From: a virus
Taxonomy: Duplodnaviria > Caudoviricetes
IMG/VR virus record: IMGVR_UViG_3300021431_000076
Location: 32,001-96,000 of that record
Reading direction: 5' to 3' (one strand)
Length of the DNA stretch: 64,000 nt
Position 1 is the first letter of the stretch. Each line of letters begins with the position of its first letter. Positions 8,367 to 50,043 of the stretch are shown in pieces. Position numbers and translations under genes: made by a program. The notes beneath the pieces are model-generated. The model worked only from the letters and a program-made list of their open reading frames with translations, made no database searches and was not told the origin of the DNA.

Positions 8367-8540
8367 TTATTTTGTTCTGTGTAATTTCTTTTTTAAATCT
8401 ATTGGTTCCATAGCAGAGTTAGAACCTATGCACATTGCTACTTTCTTTGGTTCAACCCATTTCTTAGGTTGAGGATTAACTACTTTATTAGCAGTATAAT
8501 CATTTAAAGCTCTTGGACCAATGAAATCTTTATCTTCCAT
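8367..8540 (-). CDS. 57-aa mini-protein homologous to the major capsid protein C-terminal arm (not in the ORF track)
   Basis: MEDKDFIGPRALNDYTANKVVNPQPKKWVEPKKVAMCIGSNSAMEPIDLKKKLHRTK; AAGGAGG RBS 8 nt upstream; tandem TAA TAG stops; hairpin at 8308-8333 downstream. Confidence 0.85.
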   Translation of the reverse strand: MEDKDFIGPRALNDYTANKVVNPQPKKWVEPKKVAMCIGSNSAMEPIDLKKKLHRTK

Positions 8541-8648
8541 ATTAATACCTCCTTATATTTTATGTATCAATTAACAATATATTAGTCGAATCCAAGAGAG
8601 ATTCGTCTTAAATATTCACCATAATTCTATTTAAAGGAGGAATTTTTC

Positions 8649-42395: not shown

Positions 42396-44807
42396 TTGAA
42401 AAAGAGAGAAATAGATTTTTCTATGATGAATCCTAAACAGAATATTAGGATTGCTAAGAACATTCAGAACAATATAAATGATATCTATCAGAATACATAT
42501 TATTCTGATAATAAGGATTCCTCTTATATTGAAAATATCAGAAGAAAGATGGACCTTGATCTTAACTATCTTCAAGATAAGAATAAGATCCGTAATAATG
42601 GTGTAAATATCTCTGATCTGTATGCTAAGACATTAGCTAAAACAGATGAGGGAGTTATTAAAGAACTTAGAGGAGCATTGCAGGATGAATCCATGATTAC
42701 AGATATCATGGATATGTATTCTAAGAATGCTATTATTAAAGACTTAGATAGAGAGATAGATGTAGTATGTAAGTATATGCCTAAATTAGATCAGGCATTA
42801 GATATTAAAGCAGATCATGTTATGAGTGCAGATCATTTTAATGATGATCCATTAGAACTCACAATAAATAATAATGACTCTAATGCATCTACTAACTCTA
42901 ATCCTAAGTTTGGACAGAAGAAAGACTTAGATTCTTTCAAAGAGAAATATGATATTTATAATAGAGCAAGAAAGTGGTATGATAAGGCTTCTAAGTATGG
43001 TGAGTGTCCTGTATATATTACATCATATAATAAAGCATTACAGAGAATAATGCAAAGAACTGGTAAATCAGACTTATTATCAGAATCTGCTATTACTGAA
43101 GCAGTAGATAGCGTTTCTGTTCCATTGAAGTTTTCTTATACTATTCCTATTAATGAATCTATGAACGATTCAGAATTAGTAATAGAGAATAGTGGAGCTA
43201 TTAAAGAGGGATATACTGATATAGAGGTCGAATTAAACCCCTCAGGGGTAATACCCAGTGTAGTTACACAGCAAACTACTCTCAGACGTGTTTTGCGAGA
43301 ATCTCGTGGTGTATTTCAGGCTAAGGGCGTCAAATCTGACGACACATTACTCAGTAATGTAGGATATCTGAAAAATATGAATAAAGAATTCCAGAAATTT
43401 GCTAAAGAAGGAGGTTCTTTAAAACAACCTACGGCATTAGTAATTGATGGATTCTCTGATAGAGAAAAAAAGAAAAAGGAAATTGCTAAAATAGATGTAG
43501 CAGGAGCTGTTATTAAAATTCTAGATAGAAGTATGCTTAAGCCTTTATATATTGATGATACTTGCCTAGGATATTACTATATTGAAACTTCTGGTGGTAT
43601 GAAATTTGAAGAACAGACTACATTCACATCTACATTAGGTGGTTTAAGACCTAGAAGATCTACTAGAGATAGAGAAGATTTGGATAAGAAATCTCAAATA
43701 GATGATGTATTGATTAAGATTGCTAGAAGAATATCTCAGAAGATAGATGCTAACTTTATCAATGCTAATCAGGATCTTACACAAGAGATTTATGCTATTC
43801 TTAAATATAATGCAGATCATGGTGCTAATAGTAAAGTAGGTAAGATTAGAGTAACTTTCTTGCCTCCAGAAGATGTAGTAGTTATTGCATTTGATATCAA
43901 CGAAAATACACATAGAGGTAGATCTGATCTTTATAAATCTCTATTCCCTGCTAAATTATATTCTTGCTTGTATATCTCTAATACTATTGCTCTACTTACT
44001 AGAGGATATGATAAGAGAATTTATCAAGTAAGACAGACAGTAGATACCAATATCTCTGGTGTATTGATGAATGTTATTAATCAGATTAAACAGTCTAACT
44101 TCAATCTAAGACAGATTGAGAATATGAATAACATTATGAATATCACTGGTAGATTTAATGACTTAGTAATTCCTCAAAATGCTAATGGAGAATCACCAAT
44201 TAACTTTGAAGTATTACCTGGTCAGAATATAGAGATTAAAACAGACTTTATGAACTCTCTAGAAGAAATGGCAGTAGATCTTACTGGTGTTACTATAGAG
44301 ATGCTTAATGCTCGTAAGGATGAACAGACTGCTACTCATATTACTATGACCAACTCTAGATTCCTTATGAAGATTTATGCTAGACAACAAGCATATCAGA
44401 AGTTCTTATCTCTAATCTGTACTAAGATATATCAGGCAGAATATGATACTACTGATACTATAGAAGTAAAACTTCCGCCTCCTGCATTCCTTAACTTTAC
44501 AAATGTAACACAACTTCTTGGCTTAGGTGGAGAGCTAATCAATAACATTGTTCAGATGAAGATGGGTGCTGAACAAGATGAAGAAATCAAAGCAGAGTTT
44601 ATTGGTAAATTGATGAGATATTATTATGAGACATTCTTACCAATGGATGAAATAGATAAATTAGCAGATGAAGCAAAAATAGAAGTAGAAGCAAGAAGAC
44701 CTTCTGATCAAGTTGCTGCAGCTAGTATGCCACAACAAGGTGGTACTGAAGAAATGCCAAATACAGAAGAACCTCAAATGGGTGGAGAAGAACCACAACA
44801 ATTTTAA
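42396..44807 (+). CDS. Portal protein
   Basis: 803 aa; CKYMPKL..ALD, KYGE, LGYYYIE, RGYDKRIY and LPPP motifs resembling T4 gp20-like jumbo-phage portals; TTG start; late promoter at 42353. Confidence 0.75.
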   Translation: MKKREIDFSMMNPKQNIRIAKNIQNNINDIYQNTYYSDNKDSSYIENIRRKMDLDLNYLQDKNKIRNNGVNISDLYAKTLAKTDEGVIKELRGALQDESMITDIMDMYSKNAIIKDLDREIDVVCKYMPKLDQALDIKADHVMSADHFNDDPLELTINNNDSNASTNSNPKFGQKKDLDSFKEKYDIYNRARKWYDKASKYGECPVYITSYNKALQRIMQRTGKSDLLSESAITEAVDSVSVPLKFSYTIPINESMNDSELVIENSGAIKEGYTDIEVELNPSGVIPSVVTQQTTLRRVLRESRGVFQAKGVKSDDTLLSNVGYLKNMNKEFQKFAKEGGSLKQPTALVIDGFSDREKKKKEIAKIDVAGAVIKILDRSMLKPLYIDDTCLGYYYIETSGGMKFEEQTTFTSTLGGLRPRRSTRDREDLDKKSQIDDVLIKIARRISQKIDANFINANQDLTQEIYAILKYNADHGANSKVGKIRVTFLPPEDVVVIAFDINENTHRGRSDLYKSLFPAKLYSCLYISNTIALLTRGYDKRIYQVRQTVDTNISGVLMNVINQIKQSNFNLRQIENMNNIMNITGRFNDLVIPQNANGESPINFEVLPGQNIEIKTDFMNSLEEMAVDLTGVTIEMLNARKDEQTATHITMTNSRFLMKIYARQQAYQKFLSLICTKIYQAEYDTTDTIEVKLPPPAFLNFTNVTQLLGLGGELINNIVQMKMGAEQDEEIKAEFIGKLMRYYYETFLPMDEIDKLADEAKIEVEARRPSDQVAAASMPQQGGTEEMPNTEEPQMGGEEPQQF

Positions 44808-44811
44808 CACT

Positions 44812-44913
44812 AAACTCCCACTGCTCTGTTTCGAGCAGTGGGAATCTATAAGGAGGTATATATTAACAACAACAAGCAAAACAGAAAATGATACCGGCAT
44901 ATCATCATCCATT
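44812..44913 (-). ncRNA. Candidate late small RNA with a perfect anti-SD ACCUCCUUA
   Basis: GACA-atagta-TA promoter at 44913-44924; 5' hairpin; U-rich linker; ACCUCCUUA (44849-44857); shares the portal terminator hairpin 44817-44842. Confidence 0.55.
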
Positions 44914-44980
44914 ATACTATTGTCAAAAAAAATGAGGGACCTTTTTACAGGTCCCCCATTTTTAATGTGGTGCTATATTA

Positions 44981-45505
44981 TTAGCACCACTTGTCATCTT
45001 CTTCCTCCTCCTTTCCTTTTTTCTCGGCGCTGGAAGATTTTACCAGGTATTTCTTTGCCTTGTCAGAGATTTCTTTTTTGAATTTTTCCTCCCTCTTTTC
45101 TTTCTCCGTGTTTGCTGCTACCTTGTTCAGATGAGCAAGCATCTTAGTAATGTTCTCAAGGGCTGCGTCCTGTTTCTGGATATGCTCCTCAATAGCGCTG
45201 ATACCCAAGTTTTCCTTAAGAGTATTCAGCTTCTGCTCACGTTCAGCTAACTGAGCATCTGCTTCTTTTTCTGCTTTTTCTTGCAGATGCTCAAACTGTT
45301 TTTGGCGGTATTGGTTTATCACCATACCGCCTACAGACGTGACAATATCCCAAGCCATCCACTTTACATTTGTGGACGTCTTGTTCTGCTTAACCAGATC
45401 TTCCTTATTCACTTTTTCAGTGAATTCGGCTAAGGTATCCTGCTGCTGCATTCCACCTGCTACCAGAGTTGCCAGAACATTTGCGATTTCGTTTGCGTTT
45501 GCCAT
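44981..45505 (-). CDS. Early coiled-coil protein with higher-GC codon usage
   Basis: Own early promoter at 45575, structured leader, GAAAGGAG RBS and terminator. Confidence 0.75.
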   Translation of the reverse strand: MANANEIANVLATLVAGGMQQQDTLAEFTEKVNKEDLVKQNKTSTNVKWMAWDIVTSVGGMVINQYRQKQFEHLQEKAEKEADAQLAEREQKLNTLKENLGISAIEEHIQKQDAALENITKMLAHLNKVAANTEKEKREEKFKKEISDKAKKYLVKSSSAEKKGKEEEEDDKWC

Positions 45506-45646
45506 GATAAAGATCTCCTTTCAAATCAAACATGTAACACTTAATCTCTAGTGTTACTTCTCTTTATCACGACTATAATATACGTTTGAAAAATTCGATT
45601 TTTACAAAAAATAAGGTATAGGGATTTCTCCCTATACCTAGTATTA

Positions 45647-45814
45647 TTATTTCTTAGATGGTAATGACTTTTCTTTTGATTCTATAGGGGTATTAATCAT
45701 AGTCATATTAGATTTACCATTTACATCAAACTTAGTACCAAAGAATTTAGTCCATAGTTTAGCCAAGTCCTCAAATTCTTTTGTATCTAGCTCAATCTCA
45801 AGTTCAATCTTCAT
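45647..45814 (-). CDS. 55-aa hypothetical protein (not in the ORF track)
   Basis: MKIELEIELDTKEFEDLAKLWTKFF...; GAGGTG RBS overlapping the helicase stop; terminator at 45614-45640. Confidence 0.6.
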   Translation of the reverse strand: MKIELEIELDTKEFEDLAKLWTKFFGTKFDVNGKSNMTMINTPIESKEKSLPSKK

Positions 45815-45820
45815 ATTTAC

Positions 45821-47368
45821 TCACCTCACAAATTCTACTACTGTCTTTAATTTTTGTTGATTCATATTCTGCATCAGAGCTTTATCCCTTTCATCTAGCT
45901 CATTTACTTGTCTATCTAATTCTTCTTGAGATAACTTAATCTTGGTTCTTTGAGTAGCATAAGTTTCAAATACTCTTTGTTTAGATCTAAAGAAAGCATT
46001 AATAGCTTTAAATCCTGTATCTACCACTTCTATATACTTAGTATCTTTAGCTCTTGTTCTACCTAAAGACTGTATAGCTAACTTAGGAGATTTAAATGGT
46101 TCATTAAGAACTATAGTCATTTCTAGTCCAGCCAAATCTAATGCTTCTCCGGCAGATTTGGTAGTAGATAAGATTATCTTATTATCTAATTGAGCTCTCT
46201 TCATTTCTTTAGGAACAGCGGATGTATATATACCTATAGGAATATATGGGAAGTAATAATGTAACCAGTTATATGTGACTCCTATAGCATAGTTTGTTCC
46301 TATATAGATTAATACCTTACCTTCGGGAGATGTATTAGTTCCTATAATCTCCATAAGCAATCTAAGTATCTTAAAATAATTGGGTTTAGTTACTAGATAA
46401 TCAGTATACTTATTTCTATTGAAACCATACATATTTTGACAAGCACCAATATCAAATGGAGTAGGATTAGAGTTGAAATGAATAGATATATACTCAGTAT
46501 GAGGATCATTCTCTTCATCGAATAGACTTAATTTAGGTACTTTCTCATAACATCTTTGATATATTCTATCTTCATCTCGATCTGATCTCATAGGAGTAGC
46601 AGTAAGATAATAGGTCTTCCATACATCAGAGAAATTGTCTATCATCATAGTATTATCAAAATATAGATGAGATTCATCATATATCTTAATACCTATTCTT
46701 AGCATCTTAAAGAGATCATGTACTTTTTCCCATCCATTTGTTTTAGCATAAGAAGATATAGTATCATGAGAAACTAGATAAAACTTAATATGCTTAGGAT
46801 TATGTAATCCATTCATAAGTTTTACTATAGATGCTTTTCCTGCTATAATATAGATCTGATCTTCCCTTACATCTGTATACTGTAGTATTCTTTCTTTCCA
46901 TTGCTGTATCCAGTCTAAACTATATGTAATCATCATAGTCTTTACTCTATAATATGCAAATACAGCTATAGCAACAAATGTCTTACCAACTCCAGTATGC
47001 AGATTTAAGAATATCTGAGACCTTTCTCTATTACCACAGTATTGATCAGCACCTACACAGAATTTTAATGCTTCTACTTGTCTTTCATCTCTAGGTTTAA
47101 TCTTCATTTGAATCATAGAGAGTTTATCAAATGGATCTGGTTCATATTTAATAAACAATTCTCCACTAAAGTTTCTCTCTATAGCAAATTGATCCATTCC
47201 TGATGGTAAGTAAAGATCTTTGGTTTTACTATCATAATACATACCAAAAGGTTCTCTTCTAAATCTTGCTTTATTCCATATAGAGAACATCTTCTCTAAT
47301 ATTGGACTATCACCTATATCATAGTTATGAACTATGGTACAAGTATGTCTTCGTTCTACTTTAATCAT
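45821..47368 (-). CDS. uvsW: Superfamily 2 DNA helicase (UvsW-like)
   Basis: LHTGVGKT, YDESH, LTATP and QSLGRTR motifs. Confidence 0.88.
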   Translation of the reverse strand: MIKVERRHTCTIVHNYDIGDSPILEKMFSIWNKARFRREPFGMYYDSKTKDLYLPSGMDQFAIERNFSGELFIKYEPDPFDKLSMIQMKIKPRDERQVEALKFCVGADQYCGNRERSQIFLNLHTGVGKTFVAIAVFAYYRVKTMMITYSLDWIQQWKERILQYTDVREDQIYIIAGKASIVKLMNGLHNPKHIKFYLVSHDTISSYAKTNGWEKVHDLFKMLRIGIKIYDESHLYFDNTMMIDNFSDVWKTYYLTATPMRSDRDEDRIYQRCYEKVPKLSLFDEENDPHTEYISIHFNSNPTPFDIGACQNMYGFNRNKYTDYLVTKPNYFKILRLLMEIIGTNTSPEGKVLIYIGTNYAIGVTYNWLHYYFPYIPIGIYTSAVPKEMKRAQLDNKIILSTTKSAGEALDLAGLEMTIVLNEPFKSPKLAIQSLGRTRAKDTKYIEVVDTGFKAINAFFRSKQRVFETYATQRTKIKLSQEELDRQVNELDERDKALMQNMNQQKLKTVVEFVR

Positions 47369-47570
47369 TCTTTTTCACCATAGCTTTAAGTTTGTTAGGA
47401 GCTTGACCTACTATTTCATTGAATTCCTTATTGGCTTCTTTAAGATTATCACTACCAAATATATTGATAGTTTTATCTTTCAGTACATAGAATACATAGA
47501 TTCCAATACCAAAAGCTAAACTAAATACTAAGATAAACAAAGAGAATTGCTTAACAGTTTCTACAGTCAT
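47361..47570 (-). CDS. Small single-TM protein
   Basis: Start at MTVETVK behind GGAGG; one hydrophobic helix. Confidence 0.6.
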   Translation of the reverse strand: MTVETVKQFSLFILVFSLAFGIGIYVFYVLKDKTINIFGSDNLKEANKEFNEIVGQAPNKLKAMVKKND

Positions 47571-49914: not shown

Positions 49915-50043
49915 GCTGTTTCCTCTCCTTTAGAAAAAATTCATAAAATACCCTTATTGATATAATGTGCTGAAAGGTATTAAAAGTTATTATCCTTTCC
50001 TCCTTTCTCATTTATATAGTATATCTCTGTTTTTTAGTTTACC

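Follow-up and report, generated by a model that had tools for sequence, protein, structure and literature searches.

A candidate late small RNA with an anti-Shine-Dalgarno tract between a portal-like gene and an early gene of an uncultivated jumbo phage

In Gram-positive bacteria, small RNAs such as RsaE/RoxS, RNAIII and LhrC use C-rich seeds to mask Shine-Dalgarno (SD) sites. Phages encode short antisense RNAs, the OOP RNA of lambda being antisense to the 3' end of cII and the sar RNA of P22 to the ribosome-binding site (RBS) of ant. STAB-SD elements protect RNA that lies 3' of themselves. To our knowledge, very little is understood of what the small RNAs of phages do, above all in giant phages with their own RNA polymerases. 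Gene-less small RNAs of less than 250 nt, running from a transcription start site (TSS) to a terminator, have been found by RNA sequencing in two jumbo phages that have their own RNA polymerases, 201phi2-1 and phiKZ; they are mostly derived from 5'-UTRs, their function is unknown, and none has been reported with an anti-SD tract (PMC11512511). Late promoters of phage AR9 follow the consensus AACA-N6-TA/G, the last base of which is the TSS, and seven antisense late promoters and one late tRNA gene have been described in that phage (PMC5312081).

The locus studied here belongs to an uncultivated rumen/gut jumbo phage of 333 kb (IMG/VR record, 332,775 bp, 31% G+C; positions in the whole record carry the prefix G000). 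Bases 32001-96000 of this record, a stretch of 64,000 nucleotides, form the window to which all other positions refer. A DNA similarity search against deposited phages gave no match for this phage, and the only RNA runs that hold it are labelled animal gut metagenome. The window encodes a multisubunit RNA polymerase beta-like protein (phrog_3015), a tail sheath and virion proteins. A tRNA/tmRNA search of the window found none; the sole tRNA gene of the phage, tRNA-Arg(TCT), lies outside it on the minus strand (G000:C1:132161-132259).

An intergenic gap of 173 nt separates a portal-like gene, which has an AACA-N6-TA motif (G000 74353) 31 nt 5' of its start, from a convergent 174-aa gene on the minus strand. 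The product of the latter is Lys/Glu-rich and hypervariable and has no PHROG match. We tentatively propose that this gap holds a self-contained minus-strand late unit encoding an anti-RBS small RNA, a reading that we consider possible and that is built on the following parts.

42396..44807, plus strand: portal-like virion structural gene, late, 803 aa (phrog_3004, E 1.4e-24), whose 3' end borders the element
44811..44848, minus strand: T1, a 3' hairpin of 16 bp with core CCCACUGCUC/GAGCAGUGGG and tail AGUUUAGUGUU (-27.8 kcal/mol)
44847..44859, minus strand: anti-SD tract AUACCUCCUUAUA, the complement of a plus-strand orphan RBS, TATAAGGAGGTAT
44860..44879, minus strand: U-rich linker UUGCUUGUUGUUGUUAAUAU, unpaired in the MFE and centroid structures
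44880..44913, minus strand: 5' stem-loop from the predicted first base, RNA positions 1-34 folding as one stem-loop
44905-44888, minus strand: inner hairpin AUGAUAU-GCCG-GUAUCAU within the 5' stem-loop
44913..44924, minus strand: late-promoter-like motif GACA-ATAGTA-TA, with the start predicted at its last A (44913) by the AR9 TSS rule (PMC5312081)
44925..44966, both strands: T2, a bidirectional intrinsic terminator (stem 44936-44955), with minus-strand tail UCAUUUUUUUU
44981..45505, minus strand: 174-aa gene, early, with its own AR9-like early promoter TATATTAT-N6-G

The motif of which the candidate promoter is an example, RACA-N6-TA, constitutes a genuine and strongly oriented AR9-like late promoter class. 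GACA-N6-TA is six times as dense in intergenic as in coding DNA. Intergenic RACA-N6-TA sites point toward a same-strand gene within 100 nt in 46 cases and toward an opposite-strand gene in 8, and the control words TACA, GATA and GACT, in the same count as RACA-N6-TA, show no orientation bias. By first base, the gene-facing sites of the genome divide into 18 GACA and 28 AACA. One AACA-N6-TA stands 13 nt upstream of tRNA-Arg(TCT), motif and gene being 99-100% conserved in the close relative G001, and the class therefore drives non-coding genes too. Many genes are preceded by a second, early-type arrangement, consisting of GTAAAC, about 11 nt, ATATACTAT (or TATATTAT), 6 nt and G (for example, at window 50008-50040 and 45560-45590). 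This early motif, TATA[C/T]TAT-N6-G, resembles the AR9 early consensus.

The preliminary description of this DNA had placed a minus-strand GACA-N6-TA promoter in the gap. The motif is indeed present at 44924-44913, its class is real, and its flanks look promoter-like. It has the AR9-type core, with an AACA-type tetranucleotide in the GACA variant, a 6-nt spacer and TA, and it stands directly after the U-run of T2 on the minus strand. Outside the core, its positions reach a score of 4.5, higher than that of 265 of 266 coding-region sites (99.6%), of 22 of the 24 other intergenic sites that do not face a gene, and of 78% of true sites under leave-one-out scoring. Gene-less GACA-N6-TA sites number four genome-wide against about 4-7 expected by chance, so that at the candidate the core motif carries no significance by itself. 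Nine RACA-N6-TA sites, namely the eight facing an opposite-strand gene and the tRNA-Arg site, were compared with G001; only the candidate and the tRNA-Arg site (2/9) retained the motif together with virtually all (99-100%) of the 100 nt that follow it.

Set beside the late units of AR9 (PMC5312081), the promoter class has the same core motif, spacing and position relative to genes, and a late promoter drives a tRNA in both phages; by contrast, the first motif base at the candidate is G, and the TSS is here a predicted one. A single-sequence search for AR9 gp226, the promoter-recognition subunit, gave no match, which is weak evidence given how fast this protein evolves. From the promoter class we infer that the unit would be transcribed, and at late times. 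A scan for sigma-70-type promoters found none at the candidate site. Perfect TTGACA and TATAAT hexamers do occur there (window 44911-44926, minus strand); they are only 4 nt apart and were rejected as a promoter of that type. The 14-mer ATAGTATAATGGAT (44907-44920, minus strand) extends across the predicted promoter and TSS and recurs letter for letter in the D-arm region of tRNA-Arg. With a blast E of 0.17 the identity is probably due to chance, a tRNA-derived origin being the less likely explanation.

Downstream of this start, the minus strand from 44913 to 44808 is predicted to fold at -38.5 kcal/mol with a z of -6.3, much of which is owed to T1, a hairpin present in any case. The predicted RNA opens with the 5' stem-loop, which includes the first base, continues with 31 unpaired nt ending in ACCUCCUUA, and closes with the 16-bp hairpin. 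The hairpin, the U-rich linker and the anti-SD tract thus succeed one another at the positions and in the order originally described. ACCUCCUUA has an unpaired probability of 0.93 in the predicted ensemble, and the fold presents an accessible pyrimidine seed complementary to the SD. Duplexes between the linker and the leaders of 8540, 34164 and 21482 are predicted at -21 to -23 kcal/mol. No Rfam family reached its gathering score, and at E up to 1 there was only far sub-threshold, terminator-driven noise; paralogues of the element were found neither in the phage nor in G001. Three metatranscriptome runs from one sample gave three contigs on 42400-47400, of 176-243 nt and all within the portal gene, which leave the element uncovered and are uninformative either way.

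Like RsaE/RoxS, RNAIII and LhrC, the predicted RNA combines stem-loops with an accessible SD-complementary pyrimidine tract and is predicted to block 30S binding. Unlike theirs, its tract copies the full 9-nt core of the 16S 3' tail (ACCUCCUUA) and not a short UCCC motif, and the RNA would be phage-encoded and, by prediction, late.

The 3' end of the candidate RNA is less certain. On the plus strand, T1 is an 11-bp hairpin (CCCACTGCTC/GAGCAGTGGG at 44817-44842) that begins 10 nt past the portal stop (44807). On the minus strand it has a G+C-rich stem, a 10-bp core extended to 16 bp. The U-tail is better on the minus strand, with 6 U in 11 against 3 U in 11 on the plus strand. Even there, the tail AGUUUAGUGUU falls short of the rule of at least 5 U in the 8 nt after the stem, and a terminator scan called T1 on neither strand. 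Since T1 misses this rule in either orientation, the position of the 3' end is uncertain, and transcription may run on into the portal gene. T2 was called on the plus strand by the scan and is followed by a run of eight U on the minus strand. It would end both the early 174-aa gene and plus-strand read-through from the portal gene. What had been taken for a bidirectional portal terminator is therefore a hairpin that exists as described, T1, but is not a canonical bidirectional terminator, that role falling to T2.

Short, with a promoter convergent with a phage gene and an end at a hairpin, the predicted RNA resembles lambda OOP and P22 sar, and its body, like that of sar, mirrors an RBS. It departs from both in that it would overlap the portal message in the 3' UTR alone, and then only where transcription passes T1. 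As the RBS opposite the candidate RNA has no gene, there is no start site that it could repress in cis.

Conservation was assessed in G001, a relative of 342 kb whose portal protein is 97% identical and of which 265 kb aligned at 87% nucleotide identity. Identity between the two genomes is 89%, 93% and 78% at codon positions 1, 2 and 3, and 88.6% in intergenic DNA. The block 44811-44955 (145 nt) is 100% identical in G001. No other perfect run that lies fully between genes is as long, and among all perfect runs of the genome it ranks 13th in length. In the adjoining portal DNA, identity is about 95% and differences occur as close as 44810. Between the two hairpins, some 90 nt contain no substitution, which has a probability of about 0.01 at the local divergence of 5% and a far lower one at the intergenic (11%) or third-position (22%) rates. 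As this conservation comes from a single relative and shows no substitutions, it does not tell which strand or which bases are constrained. Two other fully intergenic perfect runs, G000:C1:216377-216504 (128 nt) and 277979-278100 (122 nt), lie outside the window and may be further non-coding elements. On the far side of the gap, the 174-aa gene product is only 53.5% identical to its counterpart in G001, compared with 97% for the portal and the helicase on either side; a mosaic boundary falls exactly at T2.

Among relatives in IMG/VR, only the 342-kb one has the element. Metagenome contigs yielded 32 portal relatives, all at most 65% identical except the same 342-kb relative and a 2-kb fragment; species genomes yielded no portal relatives and lacked the hairpin-linker 22-mer. 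A protein search of ENA and Logan assemblies retrieved portal relatives at 94, 93, 88 and 87% identity. Relatives with 60-61% portal identity have a single bidirectional terminator in the slot after the portal gene, the element being absent. A large group at 51-53% (L014-L024, L026 and L033-L038) carries a different non-coding sequence behind the portal stop, conserved over more than 330 nt and including a drifting SD-like word, TTTAARGTRAGT. The preliminary description had reasoned that an intact small plus-strand gene using this AAGGAGG in relatives would mark it as a relic RBS. Such a gene was absent in every relative read.

A lineage at 53-54% portal identity, in which the slot is directly convergent with the helicase, carries a different gene-less unit on the plus strand.

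L012:4030-4206, L013:4027-4200 and L005:6527-6703, plus strand: gene-less unit directly after the portal gene

This unit comprises AACA-N6-TA, two hairpins (loops UCCCUCA and UUCCCA), an unpaired CUACCUUUCUUA and a terminator, and its second hairpin shows two compensatory pairs. It is a separate candidate RNA whose pyrimidine motifs are complementary to SD sequences, and it hints at a theme shared with the element but not at homology.

The anti-SD tract lies opposite a conspicuous RBS-like sequence that has no gene. TATAAGGAGGTAT occurs twice in the window, at 44847-44859 on the plus strand and at 8545-8557 on the minus strand, where it precedes the ATG of a 57-aa ORF (8540..8367) by 7 nt. The plus-strand AAGGAGGT has no ATG, GTG or TTG within 3-12 nt, nor within 30 nt; the first ATG past it is at 44888, 30 nt away, in agreement with the earlier statement that this tract is not followed by a start codon. 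The portal stop is 40 nt upstream of it and T2 about 75 nt downstream, and it is served by no promoter motif on the plus strand. Orphan strong SD motifs are neither unique nor rare in the genome, as 9 of 59 intergenic AAGGAGG sites are without an ORF of at least 30 aa. This one comes closest of all RBS sequences in the genome to the consensus. Its 20-mer shares at least 11 nt with 14 translation start regions, whereas the 83 real AGGAGG-type RBSs reach a maximum of 9 and a median of 4; it thereby ranks first of 84 RBS-like sequences, and it shares at least 10 nt with 19 regions (top 5%).

The pairings reported before, over 13 nt with the RBS ahead of 8540 (the 13-mer TATAAGGAGGTAT) and over 11 nt with the RBSs of 34164 and 21482, are real matches. 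They arise because the orphan is a consensus RBS, and they single out no specific targets. The breadth of matching fits either selection for pairing with many RBSs (minus strand) or selection for strong 30S binding (plus strand).

Beyond the window, the minus strand at G000:C1:273700-273735 bears another consensus RBS that lacks a start codon, AAGGAGGTATATTTAACAGC; the opposite strand abuts a gene-facing GACA-N6-TA there, and the intergenic region is 96% identical in the relative. A sequence family uniting the two orphans was rejected, as the flanks shared with the second one (G000 273707) are the general RBS context of this phage and also occur before real genes. The intergenic region that precedes a 530-aa gene, likewise outside the window, contains a TTG-TAG start-stop mini-ORF behind a strong SD, AAGGAGGTGAGTAAT (G000:C1:247499-247525).

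Under the anti-RBS reading, the AR9-type late promoter would start an RNA at about 44913. This RNA of about 100 nt would consist of the 5' stem-loop, some 31 unpaired U-rich nt ending in ACCUCCUUA, and the 16-bp hairpin, with which it would end at about 44808. The unpaired tract would pair with AGGAGG-class RBSs, since it mirrors the consensus RBS of the phage, in phage and probably also host messages, and would hinder 30S binding. If portal transcripts pass T1 and reach T2, the RNA would in addition be perfectly antisense to the portal 3' UTR. Of the late anti-RBS small RNA as first described, the promoter class and the fold are borne out, the whole unit is perfectly conserved in G001, and T1 is by the usual rule a poor terminator for it. 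A point against it is one of stoichiometry: an RNA directed at SD sites in general would be up against abundant ribosomes, and late messages of the phage itself would be among those that it hits. In a stronger version, which we regard as quite unlikely, the late RNA would be a copy of the 16S rRNA tail competing with ribosomes for all AGGAGG-class SDs, and its dose would be set by the portal 3' UTR, which carries the SD and would serve as a sponge.

The plus strand offers an alternative. The orphan RBS, carried in the portal 3' UTR or in a T1-T2 RNA, might bind 30S subunits and yield no protein, serving as a STAB-SD-like stabiliser or as a decoy, with the minus-strand motif incidental. Its closeness to the consensus, unmatched in the genome, and its strand, which also carries the late structural operon, would suit such a role. 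Portal transcripts, moreover, probably continue to T2, a proper terminator on that strand, as T1 lacks a U-tract there. The perfect conservation agrees with a function on either strand. For Bacillus it is established that orphan SDs can bind ribosomes and stabilise the RNA (Agaisse and Lereclus 1996; Hue et al. 1995; both as listed in PMC3997798). With STAB-SD and the polypurine 5' stabilisers of Bacillus, listed in the same paper, the orphan shares a strong SD without a start codon; they are, however, 5'-UTR elements ahead of the RNA to be protected, and the orphan follows a gene and directly precedes a terminator. Protection by a STAB-SD would extend to downstream RNA, of which only about 75 nt and a terminator follow here. 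The SD is, besides, only about 47% unpaired in the plus-strand fold, and this explanation does not account for the promoter-like context on the minus strand or for the coincidence there of the TSS with the base of the 5' stem. We judge it unlikely.

Alternatively, the tract could be the RBS of a small gene lost from between two terminators, with RACA-N6-TA present by chance and no function beyond termination. A real RBS at G000 1249 (AGGAGGTATATATTATG) matches the orphan over 15 bases and has ATG where the orphan has AAC, so that the two differ only where the start codon would be. The slot between portal and helicase is variable among relatives, 9/59 intergenic AAGGAGG sites are orphans, and gene-less motif sites are about as many as chance would give, all of which a lost gene would accommodate. 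Neutral sequence, however, should have changed, and the stretch between the hairpins has not; it belongs to the longest perfect intergenic run of the genome, and the other gene-less motif sites are not similarly conserved. A relic or by-product is in our view improbable.

The same promoter evidence that bears on the anti-RBS RNA would serve an RNA that acts solely in cis, as lambda OOP does, on the 3' end or 3' UTR of the portal message, through cleavage of the duplex or transcriptional interference, with CCUCC incidental. T1 is weak, so that transcripts could enter the portal gene, and antisense late promoters exist in AR9 (PMC5312081). Such an RNA would nonetheless have no reason to carry the complement of a super-consensus RBS in unpaired form, and we regard a purely cis-acting antisense RNA as quite unlikely.

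Three tiny reading frames were considered as well.

ATT 44862, plus strand: micro-ORF candidate of 9 codons, 5 nt after AGGAGG, whose TGA overlaps ATG 44888
ATG 44888, plus strand: micro-ORF candidate of 15 codons, its start overlapped by the stop of the 9-codon ORF
start 44912, minus strand: near-leaderless micro-ORF candidate of 83 aa, with ATG at +2 of the predicted TSS

That the element is a tiny protein-coding gene is very improbable: the phage does have 13-aa and 21-aa ORFs behind strong SDs, the ATGA overlap resembles translational coupling and the minus-strand ATG sits at +2 of the predicted TSS, but ATT starts are rare, the second orphan RBS of the genome has no equivalent ORF, ATG 44888 is 30 nt from the SD and buried in a hairpin, and the 83-aa frame was rejected as a low-complexity antisense read-out whose stop moves and in whose overlap all differences from the relative are non-synonymous.

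The anti-RBS small RNA would differ from the C-rich-seed small RNAs of Gram-positive bacteria and from lambda OOP and P22 sar in copying the full core of the 16S tail, in lying opposite an RBS that has no gene, and in being read from a late promoter of the phage polymerase. The small RNAs of 201phi2-1 and phiKZ were found by RNA sequencing, whereas the candidate is known as a prediction. If the proposal is correct, a late RNA carrying the anti-Shine-Dalgarno tract of the ribosome would give a virus a simple and general way of adjusting translation initiation or of shutting it off, and if the version in which it acts as a copy of the 16S tail holds, this would amount to RNA-based reprogramming of translation. 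AR9-style late promoters could be used to predict non-coding units in uncultivated phages, and the slot after the portal gene would be a place in which different lineages keep different small RNA candidates.
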